Assembly: GCA_035935465.1 (NCBI GenBank)
Contig: DASYXA010000089.1
Span: 9,692-73,691 of the forward strand
Source: Candidatus Limnocylindria bacterium
Lineage (GTDB): Bacteria; Chloroflexota; Limnocylindria; P2-11E
Direction of reading: 5' to 3'
DNA length: 64,000 bases
Both the position numbers and the translations under genes were made by a program. Each line of letters begins with the position of its first letter. Within the stretch, counting starts at the first letter, position 1. This document shows positions 5,835 through 16,285 of this stretch, piece after piece. Below the pieces are notes generated by a model. It was given only the letters and a program-made list of their open reading frames with translations, made no database searches and was not told the DNA's origin.

Positions 5835-7007
5835 CTACGCCGGCGCCTGCCCGGTGCCATTCGGTCCGCTCGAGGCGGACACGCGACCGCCAAGCATGAC
5901 CGCCGCCGCGAGCAGCAGCAGCGCGAGCTGCGGCGCGGTCGTCTGCCACGTCGGATACACACCGAAGAACGTGCTCTCGGGGATCGGACCCGGGGTCACC
6001 GGTACGACGCCGGCGACCTGGAGCGCGTGGATCCCGGTCCCGATGAATTTGAACGCGAGGTAGTAGACGAGCGTTCCGGCGACCAGGAAGAACGGCCGGA
6101 TCGGCAAGCGCAGCCCGAACACGAGCATCGCGACACCGATGAGGGTCAGGCCGCCGGCACCGAGGGCCAGTCCGAGCGCGAGGTCGCCCAACGAGATCGA
6201 GGGCGCGATGCCGAGATAGAAGAGCACCGTCTCGGCTCCTTCGCGGAAGACGGCGAGGAACGAGATCAGCGCGAGTGACACCAGGCTGTTCCGCGCGAGC
6301 GCGGACGAGCTCTTGTCGCGGATGTAGCGCTGCCACGCGCCCAGGCTGGATTTCGAGTGAAGCCAATAGCTCATGTACAGGAGCATCACCGCGGCGAAGA
6401 GCCCGACGACCCCTTCGACCACCTCGCGGTTCGTGCCGCCGGTCTGCGCGAATACCAGATTGACGACCACCGCGACGACGACGCTGAGCCCGACACCCGC
6501 GGCGCCGCCGGCCCACACCCAGATCGCCTTGGCGGCGTTGCCGGTCTTGGCGAGGAACGCCAGCAGCGCCGCCACGACGAGCAGCGCCTCGAGCCCCTCG
6601 CGGAGCAGGATGACCGCGGCATCGAACACGCCGTAGCTGGTCGCGTCGAGGAATGGCGCGAGCTCGGCCTTCATCCGCTCGATGACCCCGCGCGCCTTCG
6701 CCGGATCCGGCGGTGCGCCGGTCAGGAGCGCGGTCGCGAGGGCCATGTCGTTCTCGACGTCCACATAGGCCTGCGGCGAGCGTGTCTTCACCAGGCCTTC
6801 GACATCGACCCAGTCGTGCTGGAACGCCTTGACCGCCGCCGCGGCGGCAGGCAGGTCATTCGCCGCGAGCCGTTCCAGAGCCCGGTCCAGATGGGCCACC
6901 GCGTCGCGCATCGTCGGCGTCGTGTCGGCGGCGGCCGGCCGGGCGAGCGGCCCCCCGAGCACGGCGACGAGCGCCGCGGCGCCGAAGACGATCCGGGCGG
7001 CGGTCAC
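5835..7007 (-). CDS. FTR1-family high-affinity iron permease (EfeU-like) with an N-terminal about 150-aa periplasmic domain
   Basis: Two RExxE motifs (LREGLEA and FREGAE) sit in a 7-TM core. GTG start at 7005-7007 overlaps the TGA of the upstream lipoprotein gene as GTGA. The signal-peptide-like N-terminus reads VTAARIVFGAAALVAVLGGPLARPAAA. Confidence 0.8.
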   Translation of the reverse strand: MTAARIVFGAAALVAVLGGPLARPAAADTTPTMRDAVAHLDRALERLAANDLPAAAAAVKAFQHDWVDVEGLVKTRSPQAYVDVENDMALATALLTGAPPDPAKARGVIERMKAELAPFLDATSYGVFDAAVILLREGLEALLVVAALLAFLAKTGNAAKAIWVWAGGAAGVGLSVVVAVVVNLVFAQTGGTNREVVEGVVGLFAAVMLLYMSYWLHSKSSLGAWQRYIRDKSSSALARNSLVSLALISFLAVFREGAETVLFYLGIAPSISLGDLALGLALGAGGLTLIGVAMLVFGLRLPIRPFFLVAGTLVYYLAFKFIGTGIHALQVAGVVPVTPGPIPESTFFGVYPTWQTTAPQLALLLLAAAVMLGGRVSASSGPNGTGQAPA

Positions 7008-7402
7008 TTCAGGGTCGCGACGACGTCATCGACGACGGAGTCGAGCTGCTCGAGCGCGTCGATCGCCTTCTTCGGGTCGGGCGTCGCGGGCACGGTCAGC
7101 ACCGCCTGCACGTCGGTGATGCCGCTCTCGATCTTGGCGTACCCGTCCTTGGTCTTCGCCTTGACGCCGTCCTCGATCGCGGCCCAGCCGGCCTGGAAGC
7201 GCTGGAACGCGGCCTGCGCGCCCGGAATGTCGTTCGCTTTGAGCCGCGCCACCGCGTCATCGAGCTCCCTGGTCAGGGCCGTCAGCGCCGCCGGGCCGGT
7301 CGTGGCCGACCCGCCGACCGACGCGCCACCGCCGCAGGCCGCAAGGAGCAGCATCGCGACCAGGACGAGGGCCGAGATGCGCGTCAGAGCGGAGCGGTCC
7401 AT
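7004..7402 (-). CDS. Small secreted lipoprotein, paralogue of the N-terminal domain of the adjacent FTR1 permease
   Basis: 132-aa product with a lipobox (LLLAAC). The sequence TRELDDAVARLKANDIPGAQAAFQRFQAGWAAIEDGVKAK aligns with AHLDRALERLAANDLPAAAAAVKAFQHDWVDVEGLVKTR of the permease. ATG verified at 7400-7402. Confidence 0.65.
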   Translation of the reverse strand: MDRSALTRISALVLVAMLLLAACGGGASVGGSATTGPAALTALTRELDDAVARLKANDIPGAQAAFQRFQAGWAAIEDGVKAKTKDGYAKIESGITDVQAVLTVPATPDPKKAIDALEQLDSVVDDVVATLK

Positions 7403-7427
7403 AGTTCTCCCGAGCGCGGAGCGTCAC

Positions 7428-7461
7428 TTAGGCTTCCCTAATGTGCGTTAGGGCAACCTAA
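7428..7461. promoter_or_regulatory. Two tandem TTAGG-N4-CCTAA palindromes (iron-box-like end pentamers) in the divergent permease-operon / ideR promoter region
   Basis: TTAGGcttcCCTAA at 7428-7441 and TTAGGgcaaCCTAA at 7448-7461, 20 bp centre to centre. They lie between the lipoprotein ATG (7402) and the repressor ATG (7487). The terminal pentamers match the DtxR/IdeR iron box TTAGG...CCTAA but the spacing is shorter. Confidence 0.5.
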
Positions 7462-7486
7462 CAAATTCCGACTCAGCAGGTCAAGA

Positions 7487-8128
7487 ATGGCGTCGAATGC
7501 TGTCGAGGAGTACCTCCAAGCCGTCTACACGCTGGCCGACGAAAGCGGCCACGTCGTTTCGGCCCGGCTGGCCGAATTCCTTGGCTTTTCCGCGCCGGCG
7601 GTGTCCGAGATGATCCACCGGATGGAGCGCGACGGGCTGGTGTCGCTCGATGGTCATAAAGAAGTGCATCTGACCAAGACGGGGAAGACCCAGGCGGATT
7701 CGATCGTCAGGCGGCACCGGCTGGCCGAACGATTCCTGGTCGAGGTCCTCGGGTTCGAGTGGTGGAAGACCCACGAAGAGGCCGAGCGCCTCGAGCACGC
7801 GATGTCGCCGGAGATGGAGGCGCGGATGGTGCGCGTGCTCGGCGATCCGCAGACCTGCCCGCACGGCAATCCGATGCCCGGCGTCGCGCCGACGCCGACG
7901 CGGCCGCTCGAGACGCTGTCGCGCGGCGAGCGCGCCGCGGTCATGCGCATCCCCGACCAGTTCGAGCACGAGCCCGGGTTCCTCGAGTACCTCGACTCCC
8001 AGGGCGTCCGTCCGGGCGTCGTCATCGAGCTCGTTGAGCGCGGCCCGGCGCTGCTCCGCGTCTCGATCGACGGCGCGATCAGATCCCTGCGACCCGATTG
8101 CGGTCAGAAAGTGTGGCTGGCGGCGTGA
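7487..8128 (+). CDS. ideR: DtxR/IdeR-family iron-dependent transcriptional repressor with a C-terminal FeoA/SH3-like domain
   Basis: 213-aa product MASNAVEEYLQAVYTLADESGHVVSARLAEFLGFSAPAVSEMIHRMERDGLV with an HTH, a metal-binding region (HEEAERLEH and CPHG), and an SH3-like tail. Confidence 0.85.
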   Translation: MASNAVEEYLQAVYTLADESGHVVSARLAEFLGFSAPAVSEMIHRMERDGLVSLDGHKEVHLTKTGKTQADSIVRRHRLAERFLVEVLGFEWWKTHEEAERLEHAMSPEMEARMVRVLGDPQTCPHGNPMPGVAPTPTRPLETLSRGERAAVMRIPDQFEHEPGFLEYLDSQGVRPGVVIELVERGPALLRVSIDGAIRSLRPDCGQKVWLAA

Positions 8129-8133
8129 GCGAG

Positions 8134-8790
8134 ATGGTCATCTTCGTGCGTCAGGGCTCCGAGGGCTACTGGCTCGGCGACGTGCCCGCGTTCCCCGGCT
8201 GCAACGCGTCAGGCACGACGCGCGACGAAGCGATCGCCAACACCCGCACGGCGTTCCGGGCGTACCGCGAGCTCCTCGAAGCGCGCGGCGTCTCGACCGA
8301 GCAGGTGAAGGACATCGATCCGGCGACGCTGACGGTCGAGAACGCGCCGCCGTCGGGCATGCTTCCCGGCGACGACAGGCCGCTCGAGGAGCACGAGCTC
8401 CGCGACTTCCTCCATCAGTTCGAGGCATCGCGCGCCGCGCTCATCAGCCTGATGAAGGAGCTCTCGCCCGATCAGCTGGAGCAGAAGCCGACCGAGACGA
8501 TCTGGAGCGTGCGCGAGACGCTCGAGCACATGCTGACGACCGACATCACGCTCCTCGCGCGCCTGGAGAAGTGGCCGGCGAATCCGTTCGCCGCGCTCCA
8601 GGCGGTGCACCGGCTCGCGTTCCAGCGGTTCAGCGTGATGGAGCCCGGCGATTGGGTCGACCACACGATCATGGGCCGCCGCTGGACGACGCGCCGCGTG
8701 ATGCGCCGGCTCCTCGAGCACGAGTACGAGCACTACGGTCAGATCAAGGAGATCATGGCCGCGCAGAGCGGCGACCGGCCGCCTGAGTAG
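8134..8790 (+). CDS. HicB-like (UPF0150) N-terminal domain fused to a DinB_2/YfiT-like metal-dependent hydrolase-like domain
   Basis: N-terminal MVIFVRQGSEGYWLGDVPAFPGCNASGTTRDEAIANTRTAFRAYRE, then C-terminal ...RRLLEHEYEHYGQIKEIM with the HxxxH-GQ DinB motif. ATG at 8134-8136, 5 nt after the ideR stop. An upstream GTG alternative would overlap ideR. Confidence 0.6.
   Translation: MVIFVRQGSEGYWLGDVPAFPGCNASGTTRDEAIANTRTAFRAYRELLEARGVSTEQVKDIDPATLTVENAPPSGMLPGDDRPLEEHELRDFLHQFEASRAALISLMKELSPDQLEQKPTETIWSVRETLEHMLTTDITLLARLEKWPANPFAALQAVHRLAFQRFSVMEPGDWVDHTIMGRRWTTRRVMRRLLEHEYEHYGQIKEIMAAQSGDRPPE

Positions 8791-12430: not shown

Positions 12431-16285
<3,855 letters not shown>

Follow-up and report, generated by a model that had tools for sequence, protein, structure and literature searches.

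The 84-bp region between two divergently oriented transcription units in a 64,000-nucleotide stretch of Candidatus Limnocylindria DNA, here called the window, carries two short palindromes of the form TTAGG-N4-CCTAA. One unit begins with a putative lipoprotein gene followed by a permease gene, and the other begins with the gene for a DtxR-family regulator. An earlier note had named the regulator gene ideR, and among its readings of the palindromes was IdeR autoregulation combined with iron repression of the permease operon through a non-canonical half-site spacing.

The 4-bp spacer is the geometry of a single dimer

Crystal structures of IdeR bound to DNA show that the 19-bp iron box contains four CCTAA repeats, one per IdeR subunit, with one dimer on repeats 1 and 3, and a second dimer on repeats 2 and 4 (PMC8464063). 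Each dimer in these crystals sees TTAGG-N4-CCTAA, which overturns the view of the 4-bp spacer as a departure from canonical spacing. The spacer had seemed abnormal because the outer pentamers of the 19-bp box were taken as the half-sites of one dimer. Moreover, a designed 14-bp IdeR 'half site', in which two CCTAA pentamers are 4 bp apart, takes up just one dimer (KD, 78 nM); a natural site in the nuo promoter is likewise bound by a single IdeR dimer, and the authors proposed the 14-bp sequence TTAGGNNNNCCTAA as a redefined IdeR consensus (PMC8464063).

Both palindromes in the window match this published one-dimer consensus exactly, with inverted CCTAA pentamers separated by 4 bp. The tempting misreading of the spacer as an oddity is thereby corrected, because 4 bp is the normal geometry for each DtxR/IdeR dimer. 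To judge from its sequence, the window carries two canonical one-dimer sites next to each other. The 14-bp half site was first recognised in 2021 (PMC8464063), and a review of IdeR treats the role of half sites as an open question (PMC10317159). Our literature search found TTAGGNNNNCCTAA in one work only, and no described DtxR regulon from Chloroflexota.

Two rare palindromes in a symmetric intergenic region

The two boxes lie 20 bp apart from start to start, with a gap of 6 bp, and divide the intergenic region symmetrically into segments of 25, 14, 6, 14 and 25 bp (Table 1). The coordinates given in the earlier note are confirmed, as is the rarity of the motif. When up to one mismatch is allowed, TTAGG-N4-CCTAA occurs twice in 64 kb against an expectation of 0.03, and none of 100 shuffles reached two matches. 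No additional site appears anywhere in the 64-kb window even at two mismatches, and for this reason the window alone does not define a regulon.

A parallel search for sites resembling the 19-bp iron box (TTAGG-N9-CCTAA, up to two mismatches) found none within the intergenic region. The sole TTAGG-N9-CCTAA match of the window lies inside the regulator open reading frame and is at chance level. The window has a G+C content of ∼70%. The boxes do not merge into a larger palindrome, as the central 6 bp and the spacers disagree when the sequence is compared with its reverse complement.

Table 1. Coordinates of the boxes, candidate promoter elements and genes, numbered from the first position of the window.
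Feature	Position	Strand	Description
Intergenic region	7403-7486		84 bp; minus-strand open reading frame starts at 7402, plus-strand open reading frame at 7487
Box 1	7428-7441		TTAGGCTTCCCTAA; 14-bp palindrome; predicted operator for one dimer of a DtxR-family protein; the lipoprotein/FTR1 operon has its start codon 25 bp away
Box 2	7448-7461		TTAGGGCAACCTAA; 14-bp palindrome; predicted operator for one dimer; 25 bp separate it from the regulator ATG; retained by almost every relative
Conserved flank of box 2	7462-7489	+	cAAATTCCGAC (7462-7472), 7 variable bases, GTCAAgAAT(G) (7480-7489)
Candidate -35, permease-operon promoter	7479-7484	-	TTGACC; read by eye, putative
Candidate -10, permease-operon promoter	7455-7460	-	TAGGTT (form TAnnnT), within box 2; 18 nt from the candidate -35; putative
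Minus-strand start codon	7400-7402	-	
DtxR-family three-domain metalloregulator	7487-8128	+	213 aa; Pfam PF01325, PF02742, PF04023
DinB_2-superfamily gene	8098-8790	+	overlaps the regulator 3' end by 31 nt
Putative lipoprotein	7004-7402	-	132 aa; signal peptide with LLAAC at its end; leads the divergent operon
FTR1/EfeU-family permease	5835-7007	-	390 aa; PF03239, E = 1.3e-26

The boxes are conserved together with the regulator gene

The nearest homologues of the regulator, at 77-92% identity, come from metagenome-assembled genomes of Candidatus Limnocylindria / Chloroflexota. We scanned a set of 80 related loci totalling 794,914 bp, with one genome per species and regulator identities of 58-92%. 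Every one of the 65 exact boxes in this set lies upstream of a regulator orthologue, within ∼100 bp, or upstream of the operon to which it belongs; the latter arrangement is found in L035, L063 and L075. About 0.1 exact boxes would be expected by chance in this amount of DNA, as estimated from base composition. Within these 795 kb, no exact box occurs at any other place. Box and regulator are kept together in about 75 species-level genomes, while the surroundings, and even the partner transporter, differ.

Per-column information content was calculated for 73 sequences, comprising 72 loci and the window. The CCTAA half-site is invariant, and box positions 0, 2 and 4 are nearly always T, A and G, respectively. 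By contrast, the 4-bp spacer is variable, and the 30 bp upstream of the box are almost without information. A second box (up to one mismatch), equivalent to box 1 and in a like relative position, is present at 23 related loci at a distance of 11-23 bp, mostly 18-20 bp. The 20-bp spacing of the window is common to seven other related loci. Most related loci have a single box beside the same regulator. The boxes are real and strongly conserved sites, far beyond what chance would produce.

Conservation extends beyond box 2 into its flank, and together they form a 41-bp module in which CCGA at positions 20-23, GTC at 32-34 and AAT at 38-40 are near-invariant. The flank block is retained even at loci whose start codon is further downstream. 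Because this module is far longer than a single dimer site, more than a DtxR dimer must constrain this DNA; candidates for the role of the flank are a promoter element, a leader hairpin or a second site.

We also considered whether the palindromes are no protein site at all, and instead form a structural element of RNA or DNA, such as a leader hairpin or a cruciform, or reflect chance. The minus-strand transcript of the spacer does fold box to box, at -32 kcal/mol with a z score of -3.2. However, the plus-strand fold is ordinary (z = -0.6), no T-run terminator is present, most relatives have only one box, and the chance expectation of 0.03 has already been noted. The hairpin is a by-product, because two palindromes that have common half-sites will pair with one another. 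This explanation is thus extremely improbable. Two specific candidates were examined in their own right and rejected. A selected RNA hairpin was dismissed after box spacers proved no more complementary than shuffled pairs (1.57 versus 1.51 ± 0.21), and a known RNA family is ruled out by the lack of any Rfam match.

A constant box-regulator module with interchangeable transporters

Gene order at these loci runs from mreB through a variable transporter to the boxes, the regulator and the DinB_2 gene. The DinB_2 gene is immediately 3' of the regulator in related loci (77 tblastn rows), and presumably is co-transcribed with it. On the other side, the lipoprotein of the window has no match in Pfam or NCBIfam; it is a paralogue of the permease's N-terminal domain and shares 36% identity with permease residues 6-114. 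The permease carries this additional domain of ∼125 aa, and its gene overlaps that of the lipoprotein by 4 nt. The permease scores below the cut-off for TIGR00145 and for EfeU models, and 'iron permease operon' is a fair label at the level of the family.

The divergent partner is a short EfeU-like FTR1 at 32 loci, a ZupT-like ZIP transporter of one of two types at 30 loci, and an ABC transporter with a PhnD-type binding protein at nine loci. The long FTR1 with its lipoprotein is divergent in the window only; in L035 and L063 this cassette is on the strand of the regulator, between box and regulator. That a constant box-regulator module stands beside interchangeable importers argues strongly, on comparative grounds, for boxes that serve as operators of the regulator itself and govern the neighboring transporter. 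A point against this reading is that the PhnD-type phosphonate/phosphite transporter that serves as partner in nine species has no obvious fit to a metal regulon.

The regulator belongs to the DtxR family and differs from IdeR

The regulator comprises a winged helix-turn-helix domain, a dimerisation and metal-binding domain and an FeoA/SH3-like domain, and its best PDB matches are IdeR and DtxR. It is nonetheless no IdeR orthologue, and the gene name ideR is not supported: with the actinobacterial DtxR model (NF053665) the protein reaches 147.6 bits, well short of the cut-off of 290, and both sulfur ligands of IdeR are missing. It also fails the MntR models, with 129 versus 350 bits for NF047407, 62 versus 153 for NF008273 and 55 versus 138 for NF003025.

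The window protein and 79 orthologues were compared at the positions of IdeR Met10 and Cys102, where readable. The residues in the window protein are Glu8 and Glu100, and glutamate occupies both positions in all readable orthologues. In IdeR, sulfur ligation by Met10 and Cys102 raises selectivity for iron, and MntR proteins have Asp/Asn and Glu, respectively, at these positions (PMC10317159). Glu8 fits the carboxylate or amide of MntR proteins but is Glu, rather than the Asp or Asn cited for them, and Glu100 fits their Glu.

Other metal-site residues are retained. The IdeR primary-site residues Glu105 and His106 are kept as Glu103 and His104, and the ancillary-site residues His79, Glu83 and His98 as His77, Glu81 and His96. 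The Glu and Gln of the IdeR SH3 domain correspond to Asp157 and Glu160, which are invariant in 80 of 80 proteins. In the recognition helix, IdeR Ser37 and Pro39 correspond to Ser35 and Pro37, the proline being replaced by alanine in 34 relatives, and Gln43 is replaced by Glu41, a change found in all orthologues; the base contacts of IdeR are reported to be dispensable (PMC8464063).

A linker motif, Cys124-Pro-His126, is also invariant in 80 of 80 proteins, along with His77, Glu81 and Glu160. The same position reads Ser-Pro-Tyr/Phe in IdeR and DtxR, and Asp-Pro-His in Mycobacterium tuberculosis MntR. By numbering, with an offset of -1 to the SloR chain, this set of residues appears to correspond to site 1, the primary Mn site, of MtsR (H76, E80, C123, H125 and E160; PMC6698748).

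Judged by these residues, the regulator is a hybrid that combines a DNA site of the iron-sensor type with ligands like those of manganese sensors. The suggestion that a different metalloregulator is involved is correct in that the subtype differs from IdeR, but not beyond the DtxR family, to which both belong. For annotation, DtxR-family metal-dependent regulator is preferable to ideR.

Tandem boxes recur in metagenomes

Metagenome contigs were scanned for exact box pairs whose starts are separated by 16-26 bp. At least 120 loci carry such a pair, and those listed range in G+C content from 28 to 75%. With the 23 related loci described above, the tandem arrangement noted in the window is recurrent. 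The 150 open reading frames that directly flank the listed tandem boxes include 26 of the DtxR family, ∼15 Fe(III)-type solute-binding proteins, 10 FTR1 permeases, 10-14 CarboxypepD_reg/outer-membrane-barrel (receptor-like) proteins, four Peripla_BP_2 proteins, two Nramp transporters and two Dyp peroxidases. The families of these neighbors indicate that tandem one-dimer boxes are common in DtxR-family autoregulation and control of metal uptake.

Among the matches listed, regulators that adjoin tandem boxes vary at position 10 between Asp, Asn and Glu and at position 102 between Glu and Cys, and Met10 occurs in one distant match of 28. One regulator of the Asn/Glu type adjoins an Nramp gene and others adjoin genes for receptor-like proteins. 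Spacings between the listed boxes peak at 17, 21-22 and 25 bp, in a sample that is phylogenetically redundant.

These neighborhoods also bear on the possibility that a different DtxR-family protein, for example a true IdeR encoded elsewhere in the genome, binds the boxes, with the adjacent regulator being merely its target. Cross-regulation between paralogues of this family does exist, since Haloferax TroR represses idr (PMC10783522). However, pairing of box and regulator is inseparable in ∼75 genomes, which is a signature of autoregulation, and DtxR-family genes make up 26 of the 150 open reading frames that flank unrelated tandem boxes among the listed metagenomic matches. In addition, neither the examined regions of the window nor the related loci contain a second DtxR-family gene, save for apparently mixed bins. 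A binder other than the adjacent regulator is consequently improbable.

A proposed metal-dependent switch

The boxes are very probably DtxR-family operators that provide a metal-dependent switch for both the uptake operon and the regulator's own gene. Each box would hold one dimer of the adjacent regulator. With enough of the cognate divalent metal in the cell, dimers loaded with it would sit on both boxes and keep RNA polymerase from either promoter. Leftward, the lipoprotein and FTR1-permease uptake operon would be repressed; rightward, repression of the regulator-DinB_2 operon would amount to negative autoregulation. Metal shortage would release the dimers and de-repress uptake. In this scheme we infer that the adjacent protein is the binder, that repression is the effect of binding, and where the promoters are located. 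What survives of the original proposal of IdeR autoregulation with permease-operon repression is the placement of DtxR-family operators for both units; the identification as IdeR and the non-canonical spacing do not.

The dimensions of the region favor this scheme. Because the region spans only 84 bp, with 25 bp, including the Shine-Dalgarno sequence, between each box and the nearer gene, the boxes must cover the -10 or core promoter, the transcription start or the early leader. Scans of positions 7300-7600 for sigma-70 promoter consensus sequences and for terminators found nothing, and as a consequence the promoter elements in Table 1 were assigned by hand and overlap of boxes with promoters is argued from distances. 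Two features of the alignment might nevertheless be explained by a permease-operon promoter that overlaps box 2. In 50 of 73 sequences, GTCAA keeps the same offset from the box, 32. The spacer consensus, yGAG, lacks palindromic symmetry, and its third base is A in 52 of 73 boxes, which reads as T on the minus strand. Fixed GTCAA and an asymmetric spacer would both fit the candidate -35 and -10 elements.

It is also conceivable that the two boxes form a cooperative unit, effective only jointly, in which dimers touch through their FeoA/SH3-like domains to give a switch-like response. In MtsR, neighboring dimers join into oligomers on DNA by way of their FeoA domains, which regulation requires (PMC6698748); an SH3-domain swap in IdeR-DNA crystals has been suggested to cross-link dimers at adjacent sites (PMC8464063). 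The 20-bp spacing, which places both boxes on roughly the same face of the DNA and recurs at the seven related loci, and the wide distribution of tandem boxes (at least 120 metagenomic loci) are consistent with such an arrangement. Conversely, most related loci manage with a single box and the same regulator, and spacings range over 11-23 bp in Limnocylindria and over 16-26 bp among the listed metagenomic matches, with no 10.5-bp periodicity. Moreover, at a siderophore promoter of Haloferax volcanii with two TroR motifs ∼30 bp apart, either motif is enough for iron repression (PMC10783522).

A strictly cooperative unit thus seems rather unlikely, although contacts through the FeoA/SH3-like domains, as in MtsR, are a serious alternative. 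The range of 11-23 bp among the 23 two-box relatives argues against a strict requirement for helical phase. Because box spacing drifts between relatives and most of them have one box, the two sites most likely work additively or largely on their own, and not as a strictly phased cooperative unit.

Iron or manganese

Fe2+, Mn2+ or both could be the cognate metal, as the MntR-like Glu8 and Glu100 conflict with the iron-type box and the FTR1 target. The box by itself does not settle the matter. Iron is suggested by the type of box, which is that of IdeR and TroR, by the FTR1/EfeU-like targets, and by the metagenomic neighbors, which are rich in iron-uptake families. The signal from neighbors is mixed, however, as it includes FTR1/EfeU-like, ZupT-like ZIP and PhnD-type ABC transporters, and in metagenomes receptor-like outer-membrane proteins and Nramp next to regulators of the Asn/Asp and Glu type. 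Our estimate gives Fe2+ about an even chance of being the metal, regards Mn2+ as possible, and considers a dual specificity or another metal to be rather doubtful.

If the metal is manganese, the regulator would be a sensor of the MntR/MtsR type that uses an IdeR-type box through the same DNA mechanism, and its partners would be importers of Mn or of Mn and Fe. Glutamate at the Met10 and Cys102 positions, in the window and throughout the readable orthologues, agrees with this possibility, as do the invariant residues that resemble MtsR site 1 (PMC6698748) and two metagenomic tandem-box loci that adjoin Nramp genes among the matches listed. In the opposite direction, characterised manganese sensors of the family have other operators: the motif of the Mn-related SirR of Haloferax is TTTwGA-N4-TCwAAA (PMC10783522), that of MtsR is an AT-rich 22-bp sequence (PMC6698748), and DR2539 has a 21-bp repeat. 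TTAGG-N4-CCTAA is documented for the iron sensors IdeR (PMC8464063) and TroR (PMC10783522), FTR1/EfeU permeases are annotated as iron transporters, and iron-uptake families dominate the neighbors of the listed metagenomic tandem boxes. The ligand rules themselves are indecisive, and MtsR itself may accept iron (PMC6698748). A dedicated manganese sensor is therefore a possibility that falls well short of probable.

Implications for one-dimer operators

The one-dimer DtxR/IdeR operator is known; here it stands in tandem, in an uncultured class of Chloroflexota, beside a regulator with atypical ligands. Occurrence in ∼75 genomes of this class, from soil and freshwater, and at 120 or more metagenomic loci makes the 14-bp half site a main natural form of operator. 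The locus offers a compact system for the study of one-dimer repression, of cooperation between dimers through FeoA/SH3-like domains, and of the rule by which residues at the Met10 and Cys102 positions predict Fe versus Mn; the swapped transporters are a further yield of the locus.

A broader reading can be offered only tentatively. DtxR-family sensors in Limnocylindria, and apparently in many uncultured lineages, may use only one-dimer boxes, either single or in loose tandem. The sensor here may be a hybrid that takes its DNA specificity and ancillary site from the IdeR type, has a primary site made up of oxygen ligands alone and carries a Cys-Pro-His site of the streptococcal type, and the fixed operator-regulator module may be a docking place for FTR1, ZIP and PhnD-type ABC transporters that are swapped. 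Such a sensor might respond to Mn, or to Mn together with Fe, and the PhnD-type partner could be an importer whose link to metals has gone unrecognised. If this reading is true, the Limnocylindria system would naturally explain the purpose of IdeR half sites.

Comparison with known systems

A close match to the boxes is the IdeR half site of Saccharopolyspora erythraea, represented by C23S1 in the nuo promoter and by a designed sequence (Marcos-Torres et al. 2021, PMC8464063), whose consensus TTAGGNNNNCCTAA is identical to them. There, one dimer of a DtxR-family protein with three domains binds the half site, and the regulator in the window likewise has three domains. In S. erythraea, however, the half site is rare and single, and the main operator is the overlapping 19-bp box, whereas in Limnocylindria the 14-bp box, alone or as a tandem pair, is the sole form of operator seen at the divergent promoter of the regulator itself. 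The Limnocylindria protein is also without Met10 and Cys102.

The canonical 19-bp DtxR/IdeR iron box, TTAGGTTAGSCTAACCTAA, has its recognition pentamer and its geometry per dimer in common with the boxes. It accommodates two dimers offset by 5 bp on opposite faces of the DNA, whereas the two dimer sites of the window are separate, with a 20-bp offset that puts them on roughly the same face.

TroR of H. volcanii, an iron-responsive protein of the DtxR family, recognises the ChIP-defined motif TTTAGGC-NNN-CCTAAA (PMC10783522), which has the same pentamers and the same 4-bp spacing as the boxes and likewise occurs in tandem before metal-uptake genes. Iron-dependent repression has been demonstrated in Haloferax (PMC10783522); in Limnocylindria, repression is the presumed outcome. 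The TroR system is archaeal, its motif is ∼100 nt upstream of start codons, and binding of TroR to its own promoter was not detected (PMC10783522). By comparison, the system of the window is bacterial, with a 20-bp distance between the boxes and 25 bp from each to a start codon, in a layout suited to autoregulation.

MtsR, SloR and ScaR of streptococci (PMC6698748) resemble the regulator in another respect. They are three-domain DtxR-family repressors, and mtsR is divergent from the metal importer genes mtsABC, as in the arrangement described here. The His-Glu-Cys-His(-Glu) ligands of MtsR site 1 appear to be present in the Limnocylindria regulator too, and the FeoA-domain contacts between adjacent MtsR dimers are a possible model for the tandem sites. 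MtsR differs in that its AT-rich 22-bp operator is unrelated to TTAGG-N4-CCTAA, its target is a TroA-type ABC transporter, and its metal is established as Mn.

An importer slot beside a constant regulatory module

Among Limnocylindria species, the importer encoded between mreB and the gene for the DtxR-family metalloregulator differs from locus to locus, while the module of operator, regulator and DinB_2 gene stays constant (compared: the window and 80 related regulator loci, L001-L080; table). The DinB_2-superfamily gene, for which there is no NCBIfam name, overlaps the regulator stop by 31 nt, and a tblastn search with it returned 77 hit rows in related loci, directly 3' of the regulator. 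The gene is presumably co-regulated.

Coordinates and loci of the features described here (L numbers, related regulator loci, except L101, L127 and L156, which are metagenomic tandem-box loci)
Feature	Position	Loci
Importer slot between mreB and regulator	window 5835-7486	L001-L080
Short FTR1	mreB-regulator slot	32 loci
ZIP	mreB-regulator slot	30 loci
PhnD-type ABC transporter, divergent from metalloregulator	mreB-regulator slot	9 loci (nine species): L024, L034, L044, L046, L050, L056, L061, L065, L077
Long FTR1 + lipoprotein	5835-7007, 7004-7402	the window; also L035, L063, there on regulator's strand
DinB_2-superfamily gene	8098-8790	the window
41-bp module	7448-7489	the window; 72 loci
Possible hairpin transcript, minus strand	7403-7486	the window
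Box array	13811-13900	L156
Box array	216-290	L101
Box array	6195-6270	L127
ATT in place of regulator ATG		L025, L028, L032, L036, L038-L042, L059, L066, L079
ATC in place of regulator ATG		L045, L052, L053, L055, L057, L062
ATA in place of regulator ATG		L054
Odd bin labels		L012, L020, L028, L038, L074, L076

Limnocylindria-type copies of the locus are also present in bins named Saccharimonadales, Udaeobacter, Bathyarchaeia, Dormiibacterota and Acidiferrales, and some single MAGs hold two copies (pairs L021/L027, L015/L045 and L036/L059). Each copy has its own mreB beside it in the first two pairs; in the third, mreB is visible at L059 only, L036 being truncated upstream. Together, the odd labels and double copies suggest binning contamination or mixed strains.

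Sequence elements around the predicted operators

Conservation runs well past box 2, the second of the two TTAGG-N4-CCTAA palindromes that are the predicted operators of the regulator, and defines a 41-bp module with the consensus T[TA]AGG-yGAG-CCTAA-c-n-A-w-w-T-CCGAC-N7-GTCAA-s-AAT. The right part of this module forms a genuine inverted repeat, TTCCGAC-N7-GTCGGAA, in some clades (L005, L012, L015, L061, L073 and L075), and the module is retained in L067, L068 and L076 although the start codon sits 25-30 nt further on. The extension may act as a promoter element, as a hairpin in the leader or as a further protein site.

A second conserved element, GGTGCGATACTCGG, precedes the transporter start by ~15-25 nt in L019-L060, whatever the transporter type, and is absent from the window. 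Taken on the regulator's strand, it resembles an extended -10 (TGcGATACT) and may thus be the regulator promoter, in which case the boxes would fall within the leader.

The minus-strand (permease-side) transcript of the window's spacer could fold so that the two boxes pair in a 34-nt hairpin (-32 kcal/mol, z = -3.2), which seems to arise incidentally from two palindromes with common half-sites.

Among the matches listed, TTAGG-N4-CCTAA boxes also form arrays on some metagenomic contigs; these comprise from three to at least five boxes and have a constant period of 18, 19 or 22 bp. One such array, on a contig of 36% G+C, consists of repeated TTAGGAGAACCTAAGGTG.

Probable non-canonical start codons of the regulator

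The codon homologous to the regulator ATG is ATT, ATC or ATA, in frame, in 19 species. In none of these does a canonical start occur upstream of that codon before a stop is reached, and in 18 of them the next one lies at least 23 codons downstream, beyond the predicted metal ligand Glu8; the exception is L041, where a GTG stands in frame at codon 6. ATT, ATC and ATA look like non-canonical start codons, which may hold translation of the repressor at a low level.

Possible partners of the permease and the metal sensor

The 132-aa lipoprotein is paralogous to the N-terminal ~115 residues of the long FTR1 permease (36% identity), and neither the lipoprotein nor this N-terminal region has a Pfam or NCBIfam family. 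The shared region may represent a periplasmic domain, so far undescribed, that partners FTR1 permeases.

In the nine species with the divergent ABC transporter, its binding protein passes TIGR01098, a phosphate/phosphite/phosphonate model, with 142 bits versus a cut-off of 112. Such a transporter makes an odd pairing with a metal sensor.
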